Source of the DNA: Candidatus Woesebacteria bacterium | GTDB lineage: Bacteria; Patescibacteriota; Microgenomatia; UBA1400; UBA12028 | NCBI GenBank assembly: GCA_018060955.1 | Contig: JAGOVC010000002.1 | Coordinates: 1-53,061, forward strand | Reading direction: 5' to 3' | Length of the DNA: 53,061 bases | Shown here: piece after piece, positions 5,462 to 46,152 of the stretch | Layout of the letters: the number at the start of each line of letters is the position of its first letter | Position numbering within the stretch: position 1 is the first letter of the stretch | The notes under the pieces: model-generated | What the model was told of the DNA's origin: nothing | The model's input: only the letters and a program-made list of their open reading frames with translations | Database searches by the model: none | Translations under genes and position numbers: made by a program

Positions 5462-5974
5462 ATGTCATATCCCGCGTATTCGATTTGGCTGATGCCAGAT
5501 CAAGAGTCTTCCGCAAGTATCAAGCAACTCATCGACCCCTTGAGCGTAAAGTATCACTCCCATTCGTTTGAACCACATATTACGTTGTTATCGCGAATTG
5601 GAAAAAGCGAAGGATACGTCCGGGATCGTGTGAAAGACCTATCTAAGGTGATTCATCCCTTTGAAATAGAACTAAAAGAAATTGAATACAATACGACCTA
5701 TTTTCAGTGTGTTCTTGCTCAGGTCAAGCCTACTCTAGAATTAATGGAAGCTAGAGTTCTTGCACAAGATCTCTTAGAAGCAGATAAAACGATTTTTTAT
5801 AATCCACATCTAAGTCTCTTGTATGGGGATTTTGTCTTGGAAGAACGAGAAAAAATCAGTCGACAAATCACTCTTCCCATCCACACACTTCGCATCGATA
5901 AAATTTGGATGACCCCATCTGGAGTTCGACCGGAGCAATGGGTGACCTTAGAAGAATTTGTGTTAACCCCATAA
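5462..5974 (+). CDS. 2H phosphoesterase superfamily protein (cyclic phosphodiesterase / RNA ligase-like)
   Basis: Two H-x-T/S-x motifs: PHITLL and PHLSLLYG. Confidence 0.65.
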   Translation: MSYPAYSIWLMPDQESSASIKQLIDPLSVKYHSHSFEPHITLLSRIGKSEGYVRDRVKDLSKVIHPFEIELKEIEYNTTYFQCVLAQVKPTLELMEARVLAQDLLEADKTIFYNPHLSLLYGDFVLEEREKISRQITLPIHTLRIDKIWMTPSGVRPEQWVTLEEFVLTP

Positions 5975-6465: not shown

Positions 6466-9400
6466 TCAGCGATTCCTTCGGGCCAGCAGTGCGAAAAGAA
6501 TTCACAATCAGAGCAGACTGCAGCGTTGGAAGTACGATTAAACTTTAAGTCTCTAATCTCTTGCATCACGGTCCTAATTGTCGTTTTAAGTTCTTCAACG
6601 TCTTCTCTACTAATGCTAAACGACTCTTGTTTATGTTTTCCACTCGTTTTATCGGGTTCAATAAAATCAAGCACGAAATTCTCTGCGGTTGGAGTAAAGG
6701 TTTTGTCTAGCTCTGTGAGCAATTTGTAAAAAACTAATTGTCGTTTGTAGGCAGGATCTTTTTTCCCAGTTTTACCTTCAATTTCATTGCGGGTGCGCGG
6801 TCGCCCTGTTTTGTAGTCTGTGATGCGCACAGTTTTATCGGATTCACTCAACCAATCAATTCGATCAACTTTTCCTGTTAACGGTATATCGTCCAAATAG
6901 GTTTTGGACCACCCAGATCCAAACTGTCGTTCACAGAAAAGCGGAACGGTAAATTGATCTTGATTGGCCAAATAATACGACTGCAAGATGAGTTCTCCAT
7001 GGCGACGTCGTTTTTTTTCTGCGTCGGGAGTTAAGAGTTCTTTTTGTAACGCGTTTTTAAATGATTCCAGGAGAAAATCGATCGATGGAGTCTGTTTCTC
7101 GGTTTGAAGTTTCAAGAAGAAGAGTTCCAGAGCTTTATGGATTGCTGTACCTAAGGCTTGGTGTTCTGATTTTGCGCGTGGAACTTTAAGCAGGTGATTA
7201 AGCTTAAATTTATACGGACACTTTAGGTAGGTATCCAGCGCAGTAGGGGACAGCTTAAATGTAGAAACAAGCTGTGACAAAAAATCTTCCTCTTGATTGG
7301 TTATTACAACAGGCGGTCTTGGAGATACCAATTTTTCCAGGAGTGCAGCGGGATTGGATTCAAATTGTTCCAAGCTGACCTCTTGGAGGTATGTCGGAGT
7401 GATTTCCGTGGTAAAGATGCTGGGAACGGTTTCTTTACTAGAATCACCGGAGATTAAAGTCGAAGGGATACTTAGCGTAATCGATGACTTCGCACGAGTA
7501 AGGGCAACATAAAATAATCGACGTTCATCTTCGTTAGGATCTTTGGAGGAGATGTCCATGGATGTAATGATCGACTCCGGAAGAGGAAGTAAGTTGCGAG
7601 TGGAATTGTTCCCCCACTTTTTATCGATTGCCGTCAAGATAAACACGTGTTCCCATTCCTGACCTTTAGATTTATGCGCAGTAGTGAGATGAACTGCATG
7701 ATGTTGTATATTTTGATCTTCTTCCGTAATCGATAGATCATGCGCATTCAAGGTCTCAATAACCTGTAAGAATCTGTCTAAATTCAGCGTATGGTCAAGG
7801 TTTGCAAGCCGTTTAATCTCATTAAACAGAGTATTAACGCGGTTAAGATCCTCCACTACACTTTGACGCTGTAACACAAAAGGGAGGAATCCAGAGTTTT
7901 GCAGAACCGATTCAAACCAAGTAACAAAAGTATGGTTTGTTTCTGCGTTCAACAGTGCAACGAGCTTTAAAACAAAGCGTTGGATCGATGCAATGGCAGG
8001 ATCAGCATTAAAGACAAATGACGCTGGAAGATACTCATCAAGTGGAATGCCTACGAAAGGTGTCTCGCTGGATGAATGTTTCTCATCCTTTGCTGGTGGG
8101 TTTAACACTAGGGTGACTTCTTGGACATTGTCAGTAGATTCAGCTGCACTGGAATCTACAGGAACAACTGCGGGTACGTTTTCTAGAATTACATCTAAGA
8201 TCTGGGTATGTTGCGTTGCGGCTTTTCTTGTCAATTTAAGAATTGCTAAAGGATCTAAGCCAGTCCATTCAAAATTGAGTAGAGTGAAAAGATCCATGTC
8301 TTCTATTCCAGTTTTGAGGCCGGAAATGACGCGTAATAACAATAATAATTGTCCAATGATTGGGGTAGTCAGAATGTTGACCCCTCCATCAATTTCATAC
8401 AGAATGCCCCATTTGGCTAAGGCACTAGAAATGGCAATAGAGTCGTTGTTGTGACGATATATCACCGCAATTGACGAGGCATCGACCTTTGCATTAAGCA
8501 GCTCTTTGATTTTTTCTGCAACGTACACAACTTCAAGTTGACCTGATGAGGGACGAATGAATGATAGTGGAATGCCAACACCTGTTTGACTTAAAAGAGT
8601 ATGTGCATGTCCCGTTAAGGTGTCTAAGCGAATATTGTTATGAAGGATTAGTGAATGGGCGGCGTCCAAGATCGTCTGGCTGCTACGATAATTTTGTTCT
8701 AAATGCACAACGGTGGCAGCAGGATATTGTTTGATAAAATTGAGCACATTTTCTGCGGAGGCACCTTGGAAACGATAGATACTTTGATTGATGTCTCCAA
8801 CCACAAACAAATTTGCTGACTCTCCCCAGAAAGAACTTAATAAATTAATCACATGGAATTGGGCACCGTTCGTGTCCTGATATTCATCGATTAATATGAA
8901 GTGGAATTTTTCTTGATAGGTTGCTAGTAATAACTCCTCTGTTTCAAACGCATGCGAAACCAGCATGATCATATCGTCGAAATCAAATCTTCCGACTTTT
9001 GAAAGCGTATCCTGATATTGGCAATAAATAATGAGGAGATCACGGTGTTTTGAAATGTTTTTTTCTTTCAGTAATCGGGCAGTCTTTTTGAGTTCGACAG
9101 TATTAAGTTCCGTTATTTCCTGGTCAATAATTTCTTGCAATTGATCCGGTGTAATTCCTTCACGTTTCAAATCGGAAATTGATTTAATAATGGCTTTCAC
9201 ATAGTAATCTGGAGCATTTAATGGTTTAAGAATTCCGAGGTCGTTATTGGCGATGATCGTGGAAAAGATTTCATACCGTTCAAGTTCTGATAACGCCTGA
9301 GCATTTGGGGGCAGCGGGAAGTATTCTGGATGATTCGAAATGACATCGGCGCAGAATGCATGGAATGTGGAGATGTAGACATAGTACCCAGTCTGACCAA

Positions 9401-36291: not shown

Positions 36292-36597
36292 AAACAGCCT
36301 TTTTAATTAGGTGTAGGAAATTGCAAGCAAGTGCATTGTACCATTTTGCTACAGAATCCTTGCTTCATTCAGGGTATAGAGTATGTAGTGTCAAGTCAAC
36401 ATTAAATTCTCTTACGATCCAGATGTAATAATCGCAGTTATTAAACTTTTTGAATGTAAGAAAAAATGCGGCGCTTTTGCAAGTTTTTTACGTTTCGTTC
36501 TTACGTATTTCTCACCATTTTGCTATTGCACTGGCTGCATTCACCCCGTATAAGTATTTAACTAACTTAAATAATATGAAGTGAGAGGAGCGTTTCT

Positions 36598-37191
36598 ATG
36601 AAACACTATTTACTAGCTATTCCAGCAGCAGCACTTGTCCTGGCAGGGTGTAGTAGTTCCATGCAAAACAGTCCGACCCCGATGCCAACATCATCGCCAA
36701 TGGTAGAGCAAACAGAAACAATGAGCTCACCGGAAGTTCTTCCCCCAGAAGCAATGATGAGTGCCACTAAAGACGTTGTTGATAATGCAATGGCATCTCC
36801 GGACCACACGACTGCAGTGACTGCTATTCAAGCTGCAGGCTTGGTCCAAACATTAAAAGGGAAGGGGCCATTCACTGTTTTTGCTCCGACCAATGCCGCG
36901 TTTAACAAACTACCAGCAGGAACGGTCGATACGTTGTTGAAACCTGAAAACAAAGCGATGTTAACCAAGGTATTAACCTATCACGTGGTACCGGGTAGCT
37001 ACATGTCTGCTGACTTGAAAACCAACATGAAACTCAAAACCGTTCAAGGTCAAGAGCTCACCTTACTGTTACAAGATGGGAAGTGGTGGATTAAGGATGC
37101 GGTTGGAGGAATGTCCGAGATAACTATGGCTGACATTCAATCCTCTAATGGAGTAATCCATGTGATTGATACCGTGATCATGCCTAAATAA
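36598..37191 (+). CDS. fasciclin (FAS1) domain lipoprotein
   Basis: Lipobox LAGCSS, FAS1 motifs FTVFAPTNAAFNKLPAGTVDTLL and NGVIHVIDTVIMP, SD GAGGAG. Confidence 0.85.
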   Translation: MKHYLLAIPAAALVLAGCSSSMQNSPTPMPTSSPMVEQTETMSSPEVLPPEAMMSATKDVVDNAMASPDHTTAVTAIQAAGLVQTLKGKGPFTVFAPTNAAFNKLPAGTVDTLLKPENKAMLTKVLTYHVVPGSYMSADLKTNMKLKTVQGQELTLLLQDGKWWIKDAVGGMSEITMADIQSSNGVIHVIDTVIMPK

Positions 37192-37222
37192 GGAATCTGT
37201 TTTTGGAATACGACTATACATT

Positions 37223-37255
37223 ATCGCCTCGATCTAGCATCGGGGCGATTTTTTT
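37223..37255. terminator. intrinsic terminator (fasciclin gene), overlapping the 3' end of the convergent MarR gene
   Basis: ATCGCCTCGAT-CTAGC-ATCGGGGCGAT followed by TTTTTT. Confidence 0.75.
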
Positions 37256-37670
37256 AAGTCTTGATAATGGCGTTTAAGACGTTGAAGTAACCTTCAAGAT
37301 CTTTAGTCGATACGTCATCAAAATTATGCTGGAGCTCTGTTTTTAAATGGCTTTGGGAACACGCCAAGGTTTCAATCCCAAGCTTTGTGAGGGTCAGTGT
37401 CCGTTTGCGTTTGTCCTGTTGGTCCACACTGCGTTCAATCATTTTCTTTTCTTCTAATGAATTGAGTAAGTTGGTGATCATCGGGATCTCAACGCCTAAC
37501 TCAGATGCGGCAGAGGTGATTCGTACTTCTTTATCCGCAGAGACCATTCCGAGTAATGCCCACTCTAATAAGTTGAGATTAAACGGAGAAAGCAACGCTG
37601 ATACCTCTTGTCGTAGCTTACGGTGTGCTTTTGCCTGGAGAAGAGCTGCTTGATACGCAGGGATGTGCAT
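37254..37670 (-). CDS. MarR-family transcriptional regulator
   Basis: Winged-helix region ITSAASELGVEIPMITNLLNSLEEKKMIERSVDQQDKRKRTLTLTKLG. Confidence 0.85.
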   Translation of the reverse strand: MHIPAYQAALLQAKAHRKLRQEVSALLSPFNLNLLEWALLGMVSADKEVRITSAASELGVEIPMITNLLNSLEEKKMIERSVDQQDKRKRTLTLTKLGIETLACSQSHLKTELQHNFDDVSTKDLEGYFNVLNAIIKT

Positions 37671-37763
37671 AGTTGACCAATTCTACTTCTTACTTGAGGT
37701 AAAATCACCCCCAGAATCCGTAAGAATGTAAGGAAAGGTTAGTTTTTACTTGATGAGCCAATA

Positions 37764-37792
37764 TTCCAATTCCTACACCTGTTTGGTACAAT
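37764..37792 (+). promoter_or_regulatory. candidate extended -10 promoter for tRNA-Asn
   Basis: TTCCAA (37764-37769), 17 nt, TGG-TACAAT (37787-37792). This is the same TGGTACAAT as the rpsO promoter candidate. Confidence 0.4.
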
Positions 37793-37817
37793 CTACTCCT
37801 GTTAAGAGACTTACCGA

Positions 37818-37892
37818 TCCCCGATGGCGCAACGGTAGCGCGGCTCGCTGTTAACGAGATGGTTCTAGGTTCGAATCCTAGTCGGGGAGCCA
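37818..37892 (+). tRNA. tRNA-Asn (anticodon GUU)
   Basis: Acceptor TCCCCGA/TCGGGGA, D arm GCGC-AACGGTA-GCGC, anticodon loop CTGTTAA (GTT 37850-37852), T arm CTAGG-TTCGAAT-CCTAG, discriminator G, encoded CCA. Confidence 0.9.
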
Positions 37893-37947
37893 CTTTTCAC
37901 TTATCCGAACTATATCGTGAGATAAGTGTTAAAAGTCATAAGGACAA

Positions 37948-40878
37948 ATGGCTTTTATATTTTCAAATGGATCAGAATATCGTAAATGGGATCTACATTT
38001 TCATACACCTTCTTCTTACGACTACAAAGACCAATCTACTACTAACCAACAAATCATAGATCAACTAACTGCAAATGAAATTCGAGTGGTTGCGATCACA
38101 GACCACAATACGATTGACTCATCTCGATTTAAAGAACTTCAAACGCTGGCAGGTGAGGCAATAACTTTCCTTCCCGGCATTGAACTATGTACTAGTTCTC
38201 GTGGCACTGACCCAATTCATATAATTGGAATTTTTCCCGAGAACAGCGATAGTGATTATGTCTGGAATCAGCTGAACGTGAAGCTTGGAATTTCAAGCAT
38301 GTTGCACGATGGTAAAAAAGAAAATGAAGTTTACTGTGATATTAAGGTTGCTTCTGAACTCATTAGATCTTTGGGTGGCTTGGTTACTATTCACGCTGGG
38401 CGAAAATCAAATTCGATTGAAGAAATCACCAATGCGTTGCCTGTAATGATGGCTGAGAAAAAGGACATAGCTGAGTGCGTAGATATTTTTGAGGTTGGAC
38501 AGGTCAAGGATGTTGAAGATTACACGGCCATTGTGTTTCCCAAAATTGGCAAGGAGTACCCATTAGTAATCTGCTCTGACAACCATGATTGTAAAACCTA
38601 TGAAGCCAAAGAAACACTTTGGATAAAAGCTGACCCCACTTTTGAAGGTTTGAAACAAATTACCTACGAACCATCACGTGCTTACGTTGGAAGTGAGCCT
38701 CCAATTCATGCGCGAGTAAGGCAAAACCCTACCAAATTTATTGAGAGTGTGAACGTCACTAAAGTTAGTAGCTATCAAGAGAATGATGGAGTTTGGTTCA
38801 AAGATGTCTCCATCTCCTTGAATTCTGAAATGGTGGCAATTATTGGTAATAAAGGAGGGGGCAAGAGTGCCATAGCCGACATCATAGGATACGTCGGGGG
38901 CGCAAAGACTGTTATTGAAACGGATGATGCTTCCTTCTTAAACGAGAAAAAGTTTAGAAAAAATGACCTCGCATGTAATTTCACTGCAACCCTCAAATGG
39001 GTAAGTGGTGACACCGATACTGAAAACCTTCAGTCACCCGAAAACCCACACACCACGGAAAAGGTGAAGTACTTACCGCAGCATTGGTTTGAAGAGCTGT
39101 GTAACGATCTCGATGGTAAGAAATTCAACGAAGAACTTGAAAAAGTCGTTTTCTCTCATCTTGATCACAGCGAAAAAATTGGCCACGATAGTTTTGCTGA
39201 GCTAATCAGAGAGAAAAGCCAAACTGCAAACCAAGAAATTGCTAAATTAAAGACACAACTCACTGACCTAAATACATTAATAGTTGAATTGTTAAAAAAA
39301 CTCCACCCTGACCATAAAAATGAACTTGAAGAAGCTATCAAACAAAAGCAACGCGAGCTTGATGCTCATAACAAGACACAGCCTGCTGAAGAACCAAAGC
39401 CTGCCGATGATAACCTCGCCACCCAAGCACTTGCTATACAAATTAACCAACTTAATACGAAGATTACTGTGCTAATAGCACAGCTACAAGAGTCTGTAGC
39501 CGCTCAAACGAGCATTAAACAAAAGCAACAAAAATTAAGTGACTTTGAAGCTGAACTAGTACATCTTCAACAAGAAGTAAAAGAACTTACAGAAACGTAC
39601 GACTTTACTGAAATAACGGGAGAGATTTTAGGCGATCCGCTTTTTCAATTCACTTACGACGAAGAAAAATTTAAAACCGCAAAAAGAAAGTTGGCAGACC
39701 AGCTAGCCATAGAGGAACAAAAACATTTTACCAATGAGGAAATAGGTCAGTTTCCCAACTTAACCCAACAACAGAAAGCTAATTACATTCAAAGAAGTAT
39801 CGTGGCGCAGCTAGAAATAGCGAACGGCGAACTGAAAGATGTTAAGAAACAACTCAGCAAACCACAGGAAAAATACCAACAGTATCTCGAAGATAAGAAA
39901 AAGTGGGAAACTGACAAGTTAAAGATTGAAGGTGCGACAACTGACCCAGCGGACGGAACACTTAACTACCTTAAAAACCAACTTGCAGCCTTAGGAAAAG
40001 TAGTTCTTGATCTACTTACCAAAAAAGAAAAGCAGCGAGTAGAACTGACACGACAAATTTTCGAGAAAAAACATCAGATCGTTATCATCTATGAATCTAT
40101 CAAACAACAAGTTGACGATGTGCTTCAGCAGGGAAAACAGAGTATTGATGGGTATAGTATTTCAGTTGATGCAGGATTCCAACTTAGCCCTTCGTTCGTA
40201 TCACATACAATAGGCCACATTAACTTACGTGCCAAAGGTTCCTACATGGAAACAGACAACGCGCGAGCTCAGATTAAAAAGCTGAGTGAGCAAAGTAACT
40301 TGCAAACCTTTGAAGAAGTGAAGACTATGGCACAGAAAATTCTAGATGACCTAGCCACAGATAACAGATCTGAGGTAGACCAAAACAACAGGCAAAGATA
40401 TTTACAAGACCAGGTTAAATCACCTGTAGAGTTTTTAGATTACTTGTTTGGCCTAGATTATTTAGCGCCTAATTACCAACTCAAGCTTGACCAAAAGAAC
40501 CTTAGCAGCTTATCCCCAGGGGAAAAAGGTGCTTTACTCTTAGTTTTCTATCTGATGTTAGACCAGGATGATATTCCTCTAGTCATAGATCAGCCTGAAG
40601 ACAATTTAGATAACGAAAGTGTTGCCAAAATACTCGTGCAGTTCATTAAGAGCGCGAAACACCGGCGGCAAATTATCATGGTCACCCACAATCCTAACTT
40701 AGCCGTGGTTGCAGATGCTGAGCAAGTAATCTACGTCAATATCGACAAAGCCGATGGAAACACCTTTAGTTTCATATCAGGATCAATTGAGAATGACGAA
40801 GTGAACAAAAAAATTGTTGATGTACTTGAAGGAACAATGCCCGCTTTTGATAAAAGGAGGCTACGTTACTTAAGGTAA
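37948..40878 (+). CDS. PHP-domain phosphoesterase fused to an SMC/Rad50-like ABC ATPase with a long coiled-coil insert (Ppl-like defence candidate)
   Basis: PHP motifs WDLHFHT (from 37996), VAITDHNT, TIHAGR, ICSDNHD. Walker A GNKGGGKS (38845-38868), about 400 aa of K/E/Q-rich coiled coil, signature LSPGEKG (40510-40530), Walker B LVIDQPED (40579-40602), H-loop MVTHNP. Confidence 0.85.
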   Translation: MAFIFSNGSEYRKWDLHFHTPSSYDYKDQSTTNQQIIDQLTANEIRVVAITDHNTIDSSRFKELQTLAGEAITFLPGIELCTSSRGTDPIHIIGIFPENSDSDYVWNQLNVKLGISSMLHDGKKENEVYCDIKVASELIRSLGGLVTIHAGRKSNSIEEITNALPVMMAEKKDIAECVDIFEVGQVKDVEDYTAIVFPKIGKEYPLVICSDNHDCKTYEAKETLWIKADPTFEGLKQITYEPSRAYVGSEPPIHARVRQNPTKFIESVNVTKVSSYQENDGVWFKDVSISLNSEMVAIIGNKGGGKSAIADIIGYVGGAKTVIETDDASFLNEKKFRKNDLACNFTATLKWVSGDTDTENLQSPENPHTTEKVKYLPQHWFEELCNDLDGKKFNEELEKVVFSHLDHSEKIGHDSFAELIREKSQTANQEIAKLKTQLTDLNTLIVELLKKLHPDHKNELEEAIKQKQRELDAHNKTQPAEEPKPADDNLATQALAIQINQLNTKITVLIAQLQESVAAQTSIKQKQQKLSDFEAELVHLQQEVKELTETYDFTEITGEILGDPLFQFTYDEEKFKTAKRKLADQLAIEEQKHFTNEEIGQFPNLTQQQKANYIQRSIVAQLEIANGELKDVKKQLSKPQEKYQQYLEDKKKWETDKLKIEGATTDPADGTLNYLKNQLAALGKVVLDLLTKKEKQRVELTRQIFEKKHQIVIIYESIKQQVDDVLQQGKQSIDGYSISVDAGFQLSPSFVSHTIGHINLRAKGSYMETDNARAQIKKLSEQSNLQTFEEVKTMAQKILDDLATDNRSEVDQNNRQRYLQDQVKSPVEFLDYLFGLDYLAPNYQLKLDQKNLSSLSPGEKGALLLVFYLMLDQDDIPLVIDQPEDNLDNESVAKILVQFIKSAKHRRQIIMVTHNPNLAVVADAEQVIYVNIDKADGNTFSFISGSIENDEVNKKIVDVLEGTMPAFDKRRLRYLR

Positions 40879-40937
40879 CCTTGTATTAACTATTGATAGG
40901 GCAAACCTAACAAAATTCTTCACATAATATTCGATGA

Positions 40938-40954
40938 AGTCCCACACGGGGAGC
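40938..40954 (+). repeat. left copy of a 17-nt direct repeat AGTCCCACACGGGGAGC
   Basis: Read directly. 16/17 identical to 43735-43751, and both copies contain a small TCCC/GGGA hairpin. Confidence 0.8.
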
Positions 40955-41042
40955 TCTGAAGACTCGAGTTTATTCTTCCCCAAGTCGATTGGTTATACCG
41001 ACTTACTTGTCCAACACTTCCATATCCGAATTCGCTCAAAAA

Positions 41043-41070
41043 TTGACGTAATGTAATTTCATAGTAAAAT
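41043..41070 (+). promoter_or_regulatory. candidate promoter of the T-box leader
   Basis: TTGACG (41043-41048), 16 nt, TAAAAT (41065-41070). Confidence 0.5.
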
Positions 41071-41093
41071 GTTATATACAAGTTAATATTAAA

Positions 41094-41436
41094 GCGTCGA
41101 CGGAAGACCAAGTAAGTCCTTAGGTGGTAACCAGAGATTCAGCGGTTGGTGAAAGCTGAACAAGCCTGAGAGAAACCGAAATACCTTCCCGAGCAGTCCA
41201 AACCAATTCTTGATTTCAAGATAGTAGCGCGGAATGGGTGTGCCCATAATAGCACTAGAGCATGTCACAAATGACACAGAGTGCTCGAACAACAAGGATA
41301 GTCTTGGTTTGTTTCGAGTCTCCCATGTAGGAGACTTTTTTGTAGGCCAAAGCTATTGAAGCACGGTGGTACCGCGTATTCCTTTTGATGAAGACGCCCG
41401 TGTATTTACTTAAACGAGTAAGTACGCGGGTTTTTT
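41094..41436 (+). promoter_or_regulatory. T-box riboswitch leader (transcription attenuation type)
   Basis: K-turn, S-turn AGUA/GAA, AG bulge AGAGA 41133-41137, distal loop GGUUGGUGAAA, Stem III-like hairpin 41316-41337, T-box sequence GGUGGUACCGCG 41365-41376. A 15-bp terminator at 41397-41430 is followed by U6, and a competing antiterminator pairing exists (41362-41365 with 41399-41402). Confidence 0.75.
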
Positions 41437-41455
41437 AGTACTTAAAAGGAGGTAT

Positions 41456-42523
41456 ATGCAACCACATGAACTAGGACGACACTTAATACGTCCCGAGCAA
41501 AGACAATTAGTGACACAAAACATCATTGATCATTGGGTAGGCCAATTAGCTCAATTACGTATCAGCGATATTCGTGAATCGATTATTAATAAACAACGGT
41601 TCATAGATTTGCTCGTGAAATCAGTACAAACACAAACGCCATTGTCATTTATTGCATTGGGTTGCCAAGACTGGGTAAAACCAGAATGGGGTGATCCACA
41701 TGTAGATCGCATAATGGGGAGGATTAATAGTAGTAACAAGCGAGCTCGACGATTCACTACTGAAGTAGCTAGTTTCAGCAGTGCACTAATCTCTCTAGGA
41801 GTTCCTCATCAAATCCACTTTACTTTATCTGATATTGAAGCATTGATTCATATTCGTCTACAGAATATGGGTCTAACAATTCACAACTCAGACGCACAAG
41901 AAGTTTTAGAAAAGAATGTCAGATTTTTAACTGAAGAATTGCAAAAACTTGGAGCTCAGGTTGTGCAGTTTACGCATAGTACTGTATTGGAAGACCTTTT
42001 TGGCACAACTAATCTGGCGGAATTACAGCAACGAATTACTGGACATCATACTGTAAAGTACAGGACATTCTTAGACAACCTATACAAAGTTGATTTAACT
42101 CAAACAGCTATTCATGTTGCTGGTGAAAACACACTAGGACCGGTTTGGTTGGATATTCAATCGTTAAATTTTACTGATGATGTTATCTCATTGGCTCAAG
42201 CTGCTCAAGAAGTTGCTCCAGATATGCCAATACTAACAATTTTCCCAAATGCCGGGAGTTGGCATGCAGGGCAACAAGCTTCAATAACTTTTCCTAAGCG
42301 TGAAGATGTTGTGGCTCAAATGTTGGGACATACAAGGACACCAGCATCGCAAAAGGAATGGAAAGATAAGGTTCATAAAACAAATGATGAAAAGCTTATT
42401 CAACTTTTACAAAAATTTGGTCAAGAAATCTCTGTTATTGATTCAGGAATGGAAAAGACATTGGCAGTTCGAGCATTTTTCCAATTGGTATTCGAGTTCG
42501 ATCCATTTGATCAATCATTATGA
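41456..42523 (+). CDS. hypothetical protein, first gene of the T-box-controlled operon
   Basis: 355-aa ORF with strong SD AAGGAGG (41446-41452). No family motif recognised by eye. Confidence 0.7.
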   Translation: MQPHELGRHLIRPEQRQLVTQNIIDHWVGQLAQLRISDIRESIINKQRFIDLLVKSVQTQTPLSFIALGCQDWVKPEWGDPHVDRIMGRINSSNKRARRFTTEVASFSSALISLGVPHQIHFTLSDIEALIHIRLQNMGLTIHNSDAQEVLEKNVRFLTEELQKLGAQVVQFTHSTVLEDLFGTTNLAELQQRITGHHTVKYRTFLDNLYKVDLTQTAIHVAGENTLGPVWLDIQSLNFTDDVISLAQAAQEVAPDMPILTIFPNAGSWHAGQQASITFPKREDVVAQMLGHTRTPASQKEWKDKVHKTNDEKLIQLLQKFGQEISVIDSGMEKTLAVRAFFQLVFEFDPFDQSL

Positions 42524-42534
42524 GAGGGAAATAT

Positions 42535-43632
42535 ATGAATACAAGTTCTATAGCTCAAGAGATTGCACTACAACTAATTGCTATTGATACCTCCAAGCAA
42601 AATGGAATCCACTCTGCAATGAATTGGATTGAAACATGGTGCAAAGCTCAAGGACTTCTAATAAAAAGAATCCCTCATACAAAAGCAATCCTAATAGAGA
42701 CACATCCTGAAGCCCAAAAGCATGTGAATTTTGTTACGCACATCGATGTAGTTCCGGCAGATGGATGGAATGAAGCATTTACTCCTCTGGTCAAAAACAA
42801 CTGTCTAATTGGTAGAGGCGCAGTTGATGACAAAGGACCATTGGCTATTTGCCTAGAGGTATTGGTAAAAGCACAACAACATTCGCACATAAATGTCTCT
42901 TGCTTGATTGTGACTGACGAAGAAACTCAAAATACAGAAATTCAAGAGATTACAAAAGCAAATACATTCCATCCTGATCTATGTATTGTTGTCGATGGAG
43001 GAACACATAAAGTCTTTGATATTGGCCAAAAAGGCATCATTCGTTTTGATGTTTCAATTCAAACGCCTGGAGGTCACAGTGCATTTGAAGAGGTAGAGAA
43101 GAGTGCAAGTATCCAGCTACTGCAATTCATCTCAGATTTAGAAAAACTTGCAATAACTTTTCCTCATCACGTTGCATTCTCAAAAACATTTATCAATGTG
43201 AGTAAAATTTCTGCAGCAACTGTTCCGTATGGTTTGCCCACTCTAGCCATAGCACATATTGAATTACAATTCGCCCCTCCGCAAACAAGTGAAGAATGGA
43301 GAAATCAAATCAATCAACTTTTGGGAAAATTTAATGAATACGAATTAAACATTCATTGGATTAGCGAACCGCACATGCTAGAAAATCAAAAATTCTTAAA
43401 CCTCCTTCATTCGTTACCGAATGTTCGGTGTGTTACCACTGGAGGTAACAATCTTGCTAAAGATCTTTGTTTGGCTGGTGTTCCAGCAGTAAGCCATTGT
43501 CCCGTTAGTGAATACATTGCCCATTGTAAAGAAGAAAAAATAAACCTAATAGATTTCAAAAAAGGTGTACACTCATACCTAAAAATAATTGAACTATTTT
43601 GCGAAAATTATGATGATTTGACAAAGAAATAG
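42535..43632 (+). CDS. M20-family metallo-amidohydrolase (ArgE/DapE/acylase-like)
   Basis: THIDVVPA, GRGAVDDKGPLA, IVTDEE. The start is ATG 42535 with GAGAGGG 6 nt upstream; ATG 42520 overlaps the upstream stop (ATGA) and is an alternative. Confidence 0.85.
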   Translation: MNTSSIAQEIALQLIAIDTSKQNGIHSAMNWIETWCKAQGLLIKRIPHTKAILIETHPEAQKHVNFVTHIDVVPADGWNEAFTPLVKNNCLIGRGAVDDKGPLAICLEVLVKAQQHSHINVSCLIVTDEETQNTEIQEITKANTFHPDLCIVVDGGTHKVFDIGQKGIIRFDVSIQTPGGHSAFEEVEKSASIQLLQFISDLEKLAITFPHHVAFSKTFINVSKISAATVPYGLPTLAIAHIELQFAPPQTSEEWRNQINQLLGKFNEYELNIHWISEPHMLENQKFLNLLHSLPNVRCVTTGGNNLAKDLCLAGVPAVSHCPVSEYIAHCKEEKINLIDFKKGVHSYLKIIELFCENYDDLTKK

Positions 43633-43734
43633 GAAAAAGCTGAAGTACTTCTAATCACTTAGAGAGATATAATTTATGCCACAATAATTCTTTTTTGAGA
43701 ACTTGGAAAAATCAAGCTGTTATCTTTCGGATTG

Positions 43735-43751
43735 AGTCCCACACTGGGAGC
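43735..43751 (+). repeat. right copy of the 17-nt direct repeat AGTCCCACACTGGGAGC
   Basis: Read directly. It lies 103 nt after the M20 stop codon. Confidence 0.8.
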
Positions 43752-43801
43752 AAAACTTTTTAGCTTCAATCTTGGAGCACCCTAGGTGGGACATCGAACC
43801 A

Positions 43802-44011
43802 TTACTGATTATTATGCTCTACTTTTAGAAGTATGTTTGGTTTGACGCCAGCGACGGCTGGTAGCAGGTGATTGAGTACCTGTTCGGCTGTCATTCTGAA
43901 TTCTTTACCTTTTGCTGATATCTTTACCCAACCTATTTCATCTTTGTAGTATTTTTCTGTGAAGTTTTTAGTTCCCATCCAAATCACATAACTATCATTT
44001 TTTAAATTCAT
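43802..44011 (-). CDS. hypothetical small protein
   Basis: 69-aa ORF. On the minus strand TGT-TAAAAT (44018-44023) sits 6 nt upstream of the ATG, a leaderless-type arrangement. Confidence 0.5.
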   Translation of the reverse strand: MNLKNDSYVIWMGTKNFTEKYYKDEIGWVKISAKGKEFRMTAEQVLNHLLPAVAGVKPNILLKVEHNNQ

Positions 44012-44101
44012 ACTGAAATTTTAACATAATGAGTTCTGAACGATTTCACTAGGAGGAACCAGACATTAGACGATTGAAACTTTTTAGATATAATAAAACA
44101 C

Positions 44102-44380
44102 ATGTCATTTCAAGCATATTTAGATAACATTGAGGAAATGACAGGAAAAACTCCACAAGAGCTTATTGATCGAGCAAAATCTAAAGGTTTCGACAAAAAC
44201 ACAAAGGCTGGGGAAATTCTTGCTTGGTTAAAAGATGAATATAAGTTAGGACGAGGACATGGAATGGCATTAGTTCATGTTATTAAGAATGGACCGATTA
44301 TAGGTGAAAAAAATGTAAATAGTGGTGGGGTTCATAGTGACGAATCCAATACTCTCATCCTGACTGGAAAGAAAAAGTAG
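44102..44380 (+). CDS. DUF4287-domain protein
   Basis: MSFQAYLDNIEEMTGKTPQELIDRAKSKGF...EILAWLKDEYKLGRGHGMALVHVI. TATAAT (44089-44094) lies 7 nt upstream of the ATG. Confidence 0.7.
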   Translation: MSFQAYLDNIEEMTGKTPQELIDRAKSKGFDKNTKAGEILAWLKDEYKLGRGHGMALVHVIKNGPIIGEKNVNSGGVHSDESNTLILTGKKK

Positions 44381-44580
44381 AATCATCAACTTCTTTGAAG
44401 TAGGTTTTAAAAGAGTCCTTCATCTGGAACAGGAATAACTTGAACTAATCTTTTAGTTCTATAGATACATTCAATTCTCTAGTTCCTGTCGGATCTTGAA
44501 TTCATAGAAAAATGTCGCATGGAATGTTGCCATCAAAAAAAAGCTGTTTGGAAGTAAATCTGGATTTTAGGGAATCGTCG

Positions 44581-44853
44581 TTATTTGCCAGTAGACTGAG
44601 CTTCAGCTTCTTTTTCCATTTTTAATAAACGAGTGTAATAATCGGGAAGCTCATTGAGATGGGCGAGTGCAATTTTACCCGTTATTAACAAATCATCATT
44701 CGTAACATTAGTGTGCGGAGAAGCGGTTCCATGCTCTAATTCTACTTCCATACCCATTTTATATTGATCCACGTCAAACTTATCCCAGGTAATACCTAAT
44801 TGGTCTCCTATCTGCTTCGCTTCTTCAAAAGAAATTTGTTTTTTTGCTGTCAT
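44581..44853 (-). CDS. DUF5661-like protein
   Basis: EEAKQIGDQLGITWDKFDVDQYKMGMEVELEHGT...NVTNDDLLITGKIALAHLNELPDYYTRL. TATACT (44860-44865, minus strand) lies 6 nt upstream of the ATG. Confidence 0.6.
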   Translation of the reverse strand: MTAKKQISFEEAKQIGDQLGITWDKFDVDQYKMGMEVELEHGTASPHTNVTNDDLLITGKIALAHLNELPDYYTRLLKMEKEAEAQSTGK

Positions 44854-45032
44854 ATTGAAAGTATACTCTTATCCCTCTAGTCGTACTGAACTCAATTTCC
44901 ATTTTGATTTTTAGCTACTGAGACTTCAACTTTTTGTTCCTGAATATGTTTACAATTGCTGGCACACCTTTCACATAGATGTGACTTTAAATAGTCCCTC
45001 AAAATACTAGAGCAGTTTGTTATACTTCAAAA

Positions 45033-45416
45033 ATGCCTGAAGCTTACACTCGTAGAGAGATTATTTTTCACAACAAAATTGGTCTAGATGAATTTTTAAG
45101 ACTCGCAGCAAATTTATTAGAAGGCAGAAAGATTGGTAGTGTTGAGATTAGACTTTGGGGAGAGATCCCTAATATTAGAGATAATCCCATTGACTATCTC
45201 CGTTTCCGTTTAGGTACAGTTATTCCCTTAATAGATTTTCAAGCGGAAGGTATTGGGGTAGAAGCTTGGTCTCCAGTTAATGATCAGAGCACCGTTGATG
45301 ATTTCTTTGATTTCTTCGTTAGAAGGCTTAGAGACGACGGGCCGAAAACATCAGAAGGGACTGCAGTCTCTGCATATAGACAAAGAGTTAAAGAGTGGTC
45401 AGAGAATCAGAATTAA
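45033..45416 (+). CDS. hypothetical protein
   Basis: 127-aa ORF. TGT-TATACT (45021-45026) lies 6 nt upstream of the ATG. Confidence 0.5.
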   Translation: MPEAYTRREIIFHNKIGLDEFLRLAANLLEGRKIGSVEIRLWGEIPNIRDNPIDYLRFRLGTVIPLIDFQAEGIGVEAWSPVNDQSTVDDFFDFFVRRLRDDGPKTSEGTAVSAYRQRVKEWSENQN

Positions 45417-45617
45417 GTTGTCGAAAAATCGACCTATTTCGCCCCGATTATACTGTGAAGCAATGACATGATCGAGATTTCGGATAAGTTCATGAACAGG
45501 GAGCCCATTAGTACCTGCTCGAACTTTTGCTATAATTATAGTTCTGAGATCAAACACATTTCGAGTTACCACACTGGCACTTCTTTCTCTTCTTTCGATA
45601 GCATTTATTGAAGGCAT
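45399..45617 (-). CDS. hypothetical small protein
   Basis: 72-aa ORF, convergent with the previous gene and overlapping it by 18 nt. No motif recognised. Confidence 0.35.
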   Translation of the reverse strand: MPSINAIERRERSASVVTRNVFDLRTIIIAKVRAGTNGLPVHELIRNLDHVIASQYNRGEIGRFFDNLILIL

Positions 45618-45648
45618 TCTAGAGTTTATTTCTAGTAAACCTGCTCCT

Positions 45649-46005
45649 ATGTTTGTAGTAGGCTTATGTGATTTTTCAACCCATCATCTTTGTTTAGCTC
45701 TAGGTATCTATCATTTTTTACTTGAAGGATTACCCACTCTTTTATTATTAATTGCGTTTTGGTCATTACTACTTCGAAAACTCAAAGTTCCACACCCATT
45801 TTTTATTGTATTGAGTGGGTTTTTTCTATGGATCTTACTCTTTTGGAAGTTGCCTATTGGGCAGATTTATATAGCTGTGGGAACATCTAACCTACTTTAT
45901 TACGTCACGTCAGTGACTATTCATGTCTTATTGCCGTATTCTTTGGCATACTTTGTTGCTCTATTACTCTTTAAACGAGAATGGACGAAGCTAAATGAAT
46001 CCTAA
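45649..46005 (+). CDS. hypothetical membrane protein
   Basis: 118-aa ORF with three to four hydrophobic helices. Confidence 0.5.
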   Translation: MFVVGLCDFSTHHLCLALGIYHFLLEGLPTLLLLIAFWSLLLRKLKVPHPFFIVLSGFFLWILLFWKLPIGQIYIAVGTSNLLYYVTSVTIHVLLPYSLAYFVALLLFKREWTKLNES

Positions 46006-46152
46006 ACGGAAAGGACAGAGTTTCTCAGAGGTGACAACCTTTAGTGTTGTTATCATATTTGAACCTCTTTTACCTTTAGGGTGTCTCACATCCATAAATC
46101 AGGGTATAATGCACATAGAAGTATAGGTGCAATTAGTTGAAAGGAAATAAAT

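Follow-up and report, generated by a model that had tools for sequence, protein, structure and literature searches.

Paired with an amide hydrolase, a rare and so far undescribed derivative of tyrosyl-tRNA synthetase points to a possible new module for tyrosine supply in a Candidatus Woesebacteria bacterium

The window analysed here, a stretch of 53,061 nucleotides from a Candidatus Woesebacteria bacterium (JAGOVC010000002.1, positions 1-53,061; coordinates follow the numbering of the window), contains a T-box leader followed by a gene for a protein of 355 amino acids, P0001, and then by a gene for an M20 metallohydrolase, and the question that this locus raises is what a protein with no recognisable motif does as the cargo of a T-box. 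A reading made from the sequence alone had taken P0001 to be an orphan in which no motif of the aminoacyl-tRNA synthetases (aaRSs) could be recognised by eye, tightly coupled to the hydrolase in a module under the control of one tRNA. The analysis suggests that the pair, a rare and undescribed offshoot of tyrosyl-tRNA synthetase (TyrRS) together with an amide hydrolase, constitutes a new tyrosine-supply module. In the reading that we favour, and to which we would give about an even chance, P0001 is derived from TyrRS, has lost the HIGH and KMSKS motifs, is translationally coupled to a dedicated M20 enzyme and is controlled by a tyrosine T-box, with the module restoring tyrosine for TyrRS.

At the level of sequence families the protein is an orphan. 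Searches of Pfam, NCBIfam, PADLOC, PHROGs and the PDB (the last with phmmer) gave no significant match to P0001, the Pfam and NCBIfam hits being chance matches with E values of 0.017 or higher that fall well short of the curated cut-offs, and it does not match PF00579 or the NCBIfam TyrRS models at E values up to 1; a comparison of its catalytic core with a TyrRS alignment likewise gives no profile similarity (hhalign probability 0.3%). The suggestion that it could belong to an unrecognised enzyme family is borne out in so far as it falls in no described family in Pfam, NCBIfam and PDB sequence searches and matches no well-characterised family with an obvious role, and a search of the literature for a TyrRS paralogue linked to T-boxes or M20 genes found no description of the family. 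Its relatives are few, with seven among 5.8 billion clustered proteins and 36 clusters at 50% identity among 1.84 billion proteins, homology reaching down to ~20% identity. The gene is real, because there are 36 homologous clusters and because the AlphaFold2 model built from a 38-sequence alignment is a confident one (predicted local distance difference test, pLDDT, 94.4; predicted template modelling score 0.92).

The structure tells a different story from the sequence families. Structure prediction followed by Foldseek had been proposed as a check, and every top match of the P0001 model is a TyrRS or a tryptophanyl-tRNA synthetase (TrpRS); the model contains a Rossmann catalytic domain into which connective peptide 1 (CP1) is inserted as it is in TyrRS and TrpRS. 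Roughly half of the members of the family are 420-467 amino acids in length, and the C-terminal extension of these long forms is recognised as a Pfam S4 domain in 5 of the 38 members, the best PDB sequence match of the S4 region being the C-terminus of TyrRS. The last ~125 positions of the family, which comprise a helical domain and S4, align with the corresponding region of TyrRS at an hhalign probability of 96.7% (E 4.6e-10), and of these P0001 retains the helical anticodon-binding part only, S4 having gone. For one of the long forms the predicted structure (pLDDT 94.2) matches only full-length bacterial TyrRSs in Foldseek (E 1e-9 to 5e-8), with whole-chain matches to those of E. coli, M. 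tuberculosis and T. thermophilus, and in VIA-align its residues 17-420 align with residues 4-424 of the TyrRS chain, that is from end to end. The fold, the C-terminal profile match and the end-to-end alignment of the long form therefore lead to the conclusion that the family descends from a full-length bacterial TyrRS and that P0001 is a highly diverged TyrRS paralogue. The orphan label thus stands for the sequence family and falls for the fold and the C-terminal domains, which are those of TyrRS, and the supposed lack of any relation to the aaRSs is corrected by the Foldseek, hhalign and long-form results.

In a maximum-likelihood tree forms that bear S4 lie to either side of the midpoint root and the short forms are nested, with S4 lost at least three times, and all M20-linked members, P0001 included, form a single derived clade that is without S4. 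Since the domain has been lost repeatedly, including in that clade, the M20-linked form can do without it.

No HIGH or KMSKS motif had been seen in P0001 by eye, and this absence holds across the family. In the family alignment His does not exceed 30% in any of the columns lying between residues 70 and 113, and the helix 95-113 that follows beta1 opens with K95-R96-x-x-R99-F100 instead of HIGH; the loop 261-281, where a KMSKS motif of the KFGKT type was looked for, has no conserved Lys and carries an invariant N265-x-G267-x-W269. An alternative conserved pocket is found, made up of Cys70, Arg96/Arg99, Ser125, Glu128, His174, Tyr210, Asp213, Asp233, Asn265 and Trp269. Family-wide conservation is 100% for C70, N265 and W269, 97% for R96 and S125, 95% for E128, 92% for D233, 89% for Y210 and 87% for both H174 and D213. 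The family has lost both ATP-binding signatures and has gained a different conserved site. Judged by strand order and spacing, the conserved residues probably map to the ends of beta1, beta2 and beta4 and to the helix before beta4; in TyrRS these places bind tyrosine and the ribose of adenosine, and the pocket of the P0001 family would be their equivalent. Here then is a derivative of full-length TyrRS that has lost both class I signatures, yet is under tight purifying selection.

How the family relates to known systems can be set out from here. With bacterial TyrRS (class Ic; PF00579, SYY C-terminal domain and S4) it shares the order of catalytic, helical anticodon-binding and, in long forms, S4 domains, a C-terminal region that is homologous at the profile level, and an association in the genome with tyrS and Tyr T-boxes. 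Unlike TyrRS it lacks HIGH and KMSKS, does not match PF00579 and shows no similarity at the profile level in its core; its conserved residues are different and an extra beta-hairpin is inserted after beta1; P0001 in addition lacks S4, and the genome has a separate canonical TyrRS. The cyclodipeptide synthases (CDPSs; AlbC, Rv2275, YvmC) also have a class Ic aaRS-like fold and have also lost HIGH and KMSKS, and they too carry a residue of the nucleophile type close to where beta1 ends, Ser37 in AlbC, to which the invariant Cys70 of P0001 may correspond. Seen against the CDPS pocket (AlbC S37 and Y178/E182/Y202), P0001 has no Pfam match and an invariant Cys that by topology lies near the equivalent strand end. 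CDPSs, however, are ~230-300 amino acids long, have no C-terminal tRNA-binding domain and are located in secondary-metabolite clusters, whereas P0001 shows no sequence or Pfam similarity to them and occurs in a context of tyrosine-starvation control and a hydrolase. The isonitrile synthases PvcA/IsnA (PDB 3e59, 9dhm) are set apart in that P0001 does not match PF05141 (DIT1_PvcA) and in that they pair with Fe/2-oxoglutarate oxygenases and consume tyrosine, a poor fit to induction by tyrosine limitation. HisZ provides a functional parallel as a non-aminoacylating aaRS paralogue that acts in the supply of its cognate amino acid and is co-expressed with an unrelated enzyme, although HisZ has a class II fold, its partner is a biosynthetic transferase rather than a hydrolase, and P0001 and its M20 partner are known as genes and not as a complex. 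P0001 and its relatives are a new family inside the class Ic aaRS-like superfamily, outside TyrRS, CDPSs and IsnA by the defining features of each. Such paralogues merit attention as those that act outside translation (HisZ, the CDPSs, MshC, GluQRS, PoxA and IsnA) have each revealed new biochemistry or regulation.

The second line of evidence comes from the leader. The T-box that had been read ahead of the 355 amino acid open reading frame (ORF) is real though divergent: its match to RF00230 at 41088-41404 covers all 219 model positions at 61.6 bits (E 6e-13) against a gathering score of 93, and it was missed at the Rfam gathering threshold and seen by a local scan. It contains Stem I, with the motifs AGAGA and GGUUGGUGAAAGC, a specifier loop, the T-box sequence GGUGGUACCGCG, and a terminator competing with an antiterminator. 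The features of the cassette, all on the forward (+) strand, are these.

41043-41070 (+): candidate sigma-70-like promoter, TTGACG, 16 nucleotides, TAAAAT; a consensus match only, at 10/12 positions
41088-41438 (+): T-box leader with Stem I, specifier loop, T-box sequence and terminator; RF00230 match, fold z-score -4.5
41182-41184 (+): specifier codon UAC (Tyr) in the loop GAA-A-UAC-C, in the cmscan register
41316-41343 (+): terminator-like hairpin of 8 bp plus U-run at the Stem III position, inside the leader; equivalents in L001, L021 and L023
41365-41376 (+): T-box sequence GGUGGUACCGCG, whose UGGU would pair with the 3' ACCA end of the tRNA
41396-41438 (+): intrinsic terminator with a 16-bp stem (41396-41431) and T-run, predicted to compete with the antiterminator
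41446-41452 (+): Shine-Dalgarno sequence AAGGAGG, from the sequence
41456-42523 (+): TyrRS-derived protein P0001, 355 amino acids, short form without S4; from the ORF, the family and the structure model
42535-43632 (+): M20 dinuclear metallohydrolase, 365 amino acids from ATG 42535, with Pfam M20 and M20_dimer; alternative start ATG 42520

The sequence-only reading had placed the ORF of P0001 correctly, from ATG 41456 to TGA 42521-42523, and the strong Shine-Dalgarno sequence that it noted does lie at 41446-41452. It had also given two starts for the M20 gene, both of which are present: ATG 42520 overlaps the TGA of the orphan gene and ATG 42535 lies just past it, and the latter, preceded by a ribosome-binding site of its own, GAGAGGGA, is the more likely of the two; the stretch between the two genes is cattATGAGAGGGAAATATATG.

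Homologous T-boxes precede the orphan gene at five other loci, with 90 bits in L001, 81 in L022, 74 in L024, 66 in L021 and 63 in L023. The motif GAA(A/U)UACC is common to the leaders of L001, L021, L022 and L024, and L023 has UAC in a short Stem I loop, so that all six leaders, that of the window included, have a UAC specifier. Two further loci, L032 and L034, have no T-box, and in its place a promoter, a short ORF for a leader peptide with many aromatic residues and a terminator lie directly before the orphan gene; the leader peptide of L032, MLQSNFYFWYFMFPQHLRPGSL, holds FYFWYF and that of L034, MHFFKQYYWYFTSNPSSLRQFCL, holds YYWYF. At L024 the T-box is followed by a leader peptide, MNESELVQQNSYYYYQLLYLR, with a YYYY run, and the stop codon of this peptide lies inside a segment able to pair with the 5' arm of its own terminator. 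L024 (169-645) can also be described in its own right as a case of tandem tyrosine sensors in one operon, a UAC T-box and then a 21-codon leader peptide with its own terminator/antiterminator. The alternative of a Thr codon, ACC, which would shift the register by one base, was rejected, as the same leaders control tyrS operons and Tyr-rich peptides replace or accompany them; the register is UAC because two unrelated sensing mechanisms converge on a shortage of Tyr-tRNA-Tyr.

The single tRNA that was said to control the pair is accordingly tRNA-Tyr, given UAC in six leaders and Tyr-rich leader peptides at three loci, and as read from these leaders control of the cassette appears to be Tyr-specific in every locus, via a UAC T-box, a Tyr-rich leader peptide or both. 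With a Tyr-specific UAC T-box and co-transcription the pair would therefore be made when tRNA-Tyr is uncharged, and behind a leader peptide it would be induced by stalling at Tyr codons. As a cargo that is neither an aaRS nor a transporter, P0001-M20 represents a new cargo class for T-box regulons. No T-box was found within ~1.5 kb of tyrS in the genome of the window and in ten relatives, which is why the leader of the window is taken to belong to the cassette and not to tyrS generally. Weak T-box matches of 36 and 32 bits (G000:C53:5227-5454 and G000:C21:6129-6256), well under the Rfam cut-off, lie upstream of class II aaRS genes, from which it follows that T-box control is native to the host. 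A further observation on the T-box leaders of the cassette family is that they have a GC-rich hairpin with a U-run at the Stem III position (window 41316-41343, L001 ~7347-7371, L021 ~5863-5887, L023 ~139-156), which resembles a second, upstream terminator.

The third element is the hydrolase. The motifs HIDVVPA, GRGAVDDKGP and VTDEE by which it had been recognised are all present, and its product scores above the Pfam cut-offs for Peptidase_M20 (66.8 bits) and M20_dimer (38.7 bits) and under every NCBIfam DapE/ArgE equivalog cut-off (best 113 bits versus 381). Like the ArgE/DapE/LysK M20 deacylases and the PepV dipeptidases it has the catalytic and dimerisation domains of M20 and a full set of candidate dinuclear metal ligands (H69, D99, E130, D154 and H330 in P0045 numbering, by analogy with DapE), which are invariant in 19 sequences; unlike them it falls far below the equivalog cut-offs and belongs to a subfamily of its own, in which 19 proteins are 41-54% identical and the next relatives drop to 26%.

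The orphan gene is followed by the M20 gene, overlapping or a few bases apart, in six loci (the window, L001, L021, L022, L032 and L034/L035), the upstream ORFs of L032 and L034/L035 matching the hidden Markov model of the family at E 1e-117 and 6e-130, and two further pairs are probable from the matching size of the longest contig reported for both proteins. A check of gene neighbourhoods had been called for, and it shows that the pairing recurs across loci and that homologues do occur with M20 genes and T-box leaders; the tight coupling that had been proposed is upheld by these eight conserved pairs, counting the two probable ones, and by the dedicated subfamily of the partners. An M24 PepQ-like Xaa-Pro dipeptidase takes the place of M20 in two protein clusters, and the interchangeability of M20 and M24 partners suggests that the bond to be cleaved is an amide adjoining an amino acid. 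In one locus the partner is a NIF3 dinuclear-metal protein. A prediction of the orphan-M20 complex scored 0.00, which amounts to no verdict and is used as evidence neither way.

In five loci a canonical tyrS lies downstream of the cassette, and in L001 tyrS is followed by genes for chorismate mutase, prephenate dehydratase, an aminotransferase, 3-deoxy-D-arabino-heptulosonate 7-phosphate synthase and prephenate dehydrogenase. The aminotransferase of L001 matches sequences of Bacteroidota and Gammaproteobacteria at only ~40%, too low to tell the taxon of that locus. Between the partner M20 gene and tyrS in L022 (8350-10264) are genes for an HD phosphohydrolase and for a second, DapE-like M20/M28 hydrolase. 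The TyrRS of L024 (3049-4956), like P0117, P0118 and P0184-P0186, has an N-terminal editing-like B3_4 domain of the phenylalanyl-tRNA synthetase (PheRS) type; these proteins are of 616-636 amino acids and Patescibacterial, and the fusion may give the enzyme its own means of proofreading tRNA-Tyr.

The host itself has a genome of 1.05 Mb that is 95.6% complete, in which neither chorismate synthase nor prephenate dehydrogenase was found. De novo synthesis of tyrosine was considered for it and rejected, no shikimate or prephenate genes having been found, and from its gene content the host is predicted to be a tyrosine auxotroph. Elsewhere in the genome are a canonical TyrRS, whose nearest named sequences are from Pacebacteria, Woesebacteria and Patescibacteria, and a gene for tRNA-Tyr(GUA); D-Tyr-tRNA deacylase (PF02580) was not found in it. 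The P0001 family was not found in 60 relatives, members of the same genus included, or in 400 members of the phylum, where at most the S4 domains of ordinary TyrRSs were matched, and pattern scans of GTDB species representatives with the close alignment found no relative.

These observations show the ancestry, the lost motifs, the obligate linkage to a dinuclear metallohydrolase and the Tyr-specific control, and the mechanism that can be assembled from them is an inference. When tRNA-Tyr is uncharged the UAC T-box would permit co-transcription of P0001 and the M20 gene, and the M20 hydrolase would free tyrosine from an amide-linked compound, which could be a dipeptide, an N-acyl-tyrosine or an opened cyclodipeptide. 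The TyrRS-like protein, with its former tyrosine and adenosine pocket and no ATP chemistry, would recognise or pre-process the tyrosyl substrate, and the freed tyrosine would restore the supply to TyrRS in a tyrosine-auxotrophic Patescibacterium. The most likely biochemical role would be the release of tyrosine from an amide conjugate, and the module would act by raising the supply of tyrosine in an auxotroph. More speculatively, P0001 might form an acyl-enzyme on Cys70 in opening cyclo(Tyr-Xaa) and leave the dipeptidase to complete the reaction, the reverse of CDPS chemistry (PMC3105412). A bolder version, possible though doubtful, is that this is an ATP-independent TyrRS offshoot with an invariant Cys in the old pocket that either forms with the dipeptidase a new kind of tyrosine salvage or acts on tRNA-Tyr, and that it is carried, together with Tyr-sensing leaders, by mobile cassettes in amino-acid-auxotrophic members of the candidate phyla radiation. 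The tRNA-binding domains in half of the members, the dedicated hydrolase and the two independent kinds of Tyr-sensing leader give a handle on the substrate class, tyrosine, and the module hints at how ultra-small auxotrophic Patescibacteria may meet the shortage of a single amino acid.

The setting of the cassette has also to be taken into account. The island and its landmarks are as follows.

37818-37889/92: tRNA-Asn gene, adjoining the island
37892-45498 (no strand): accessory island of ~7.6 kb beside tRNA-Asn; content: Ppl-like defence gene, T-box cassette, small ORFs
40933-40954 (+): left copy of a 22-nucleotide direct repeat that brackets the cassette, 86% identical to the right copy
43730-43751 (+): right copy of the repeat, 22 nucleotides, 86% identical to the left copy

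In a genome of the same genus (G001) the equivalent of window 36500-37891 (89% identity) directly abuts that of window 45499-46109 (91%), and it is this contiguity of the flanks that indicates a 7.6-kb island. Its GC content is 38.4% against 43.7% for the genome, the core motif of the direct repeat, GTCCCACACNGGGAG, occurs in the whole genome only at the two bracketing sites, and no integrase was seen in the stretch 37892-45498. Directly upstream of the T-box cassette, at 37948-40878 (+), is the gene for a 976 amino acid protein with a PHP domain and an ATPase (PADLOC Ppl match, E 1.7e-32). Stand-alone orphan-M20 cassettes at other loci adjoin a transfer-messenger RNA (tmRNA) gene (L034:5661-6092, -) and an AbiEi/AbiEii pair (L032:4427-5707), surroundings that are typical of integration hotspots or accessory regions.

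Several points weigh against the tyrosine-supply reading. A substrate or an activity is known for none of the family members, the dipeptidase alone could release tyrosine with no need of a TyrRS-like partner, the mapping of residues onto the pockets of TyrRS or CDPSs goes by the order and spacing of secondary structure, and the place of the cassette in a mobile island beside a defence gene makes a role other than nutrition possible. The TyrRS-type S4/anticodon-binding module in half of the family also argues for binding of tRNA-Tyr, which pure small-molecule salvage does not require, and its retention therefore keeps readings linked to tRNA alive. One alternative, which we consider unlikely, makes P0001 a regulatory or sensor pseudoenzyme with no catalysis of its own that binds tyrosine and/or uncharged tRNA-Tyr and controls or scaffolds the hydrolase or TyrRS. 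It would account for the loss of the ATP motifs in a family whose long forms keep the tRNA-binding domains, and the overlap of start and stop with the hydrolase gene in most loci suggests stoichiometric co-production. Precedents are HisZ, a paralogue of histidyl-tRNA synthetase (HisRS) that regulates HisG, and GCN2 with its HisRS-like domain. However, the invariant or near-invariant Cys, Arg, Ser, Glu, Asp and Asn at what by topology are the old active-site positions resemble catalysis or tight binding of a ligand rather than decay, and S4 has been lost at least three times, the M20-linked clade being one that lacks it.

An enzyme directed at aminoacyl-tRNA-Tyr, binding the aminoacyl-A76 end in place of ATP in the manner of a CDPS and acting on charged tRNA-Tyr, is a quite improbable alternative; it might be a trans-editing deacylase for D-Tyr or wrong residues when L-Tyr is low or, with less likelihood, an unconventional TyrRS. 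CDPSs lack HIGH and KMSKS and use aminoacyl-tRNA (PMC3105412), and the similarity of the P0001 fold to TyrRS equals the degree reported for them (PMC3105412); the complete TyrRS-type tRNA-binding architecture of the long forms, the failure to find PF02580 in the host genome and the PheRS-type B3_4 editing-like domain on the TyrRS linked to the L024 cassette are all in keeping with such an enzyme. It is harder to reconcile with P0001 and the entire M20-linked clade being without S4, with a dipeptidase or deacylase partner that has no obvious role in editing and with a T-box that senses uncharged and not mischarged tRNA; consumption of Tyr-tRNA would be counterproductive under tyrosine limitation, and both the genome and most of the operons have a canonical TyrRS. 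The accessory setting, with a repeat-bracketed cassette of low GC in an island that is absent from the sister genome, an adjoining Ppl defence gene, and other stand-alone cassettes whose neighbour is a tmRNA gene or an AbiE pair, would suit mobile resistance to a natural TyrRS inhibitor, in which uncharged tRNA-Tyr would induce a decoy TyrRS-like binder and an amidohydrolase that cleaves the tyrosyl mimic. Resistant aaRS copies under T-box control are a known theme and offer a precedent. We nevertheless regard this as very improbable, as no inhibitor is known in such a setting, an adenylate mimic would be bound less tightly once the ATP-site motifs are lost, and the pair lies inside an apparent housekeeping tyrS operon in five loci, in L001 beside genes for aromatic amino acid biosynthesis.

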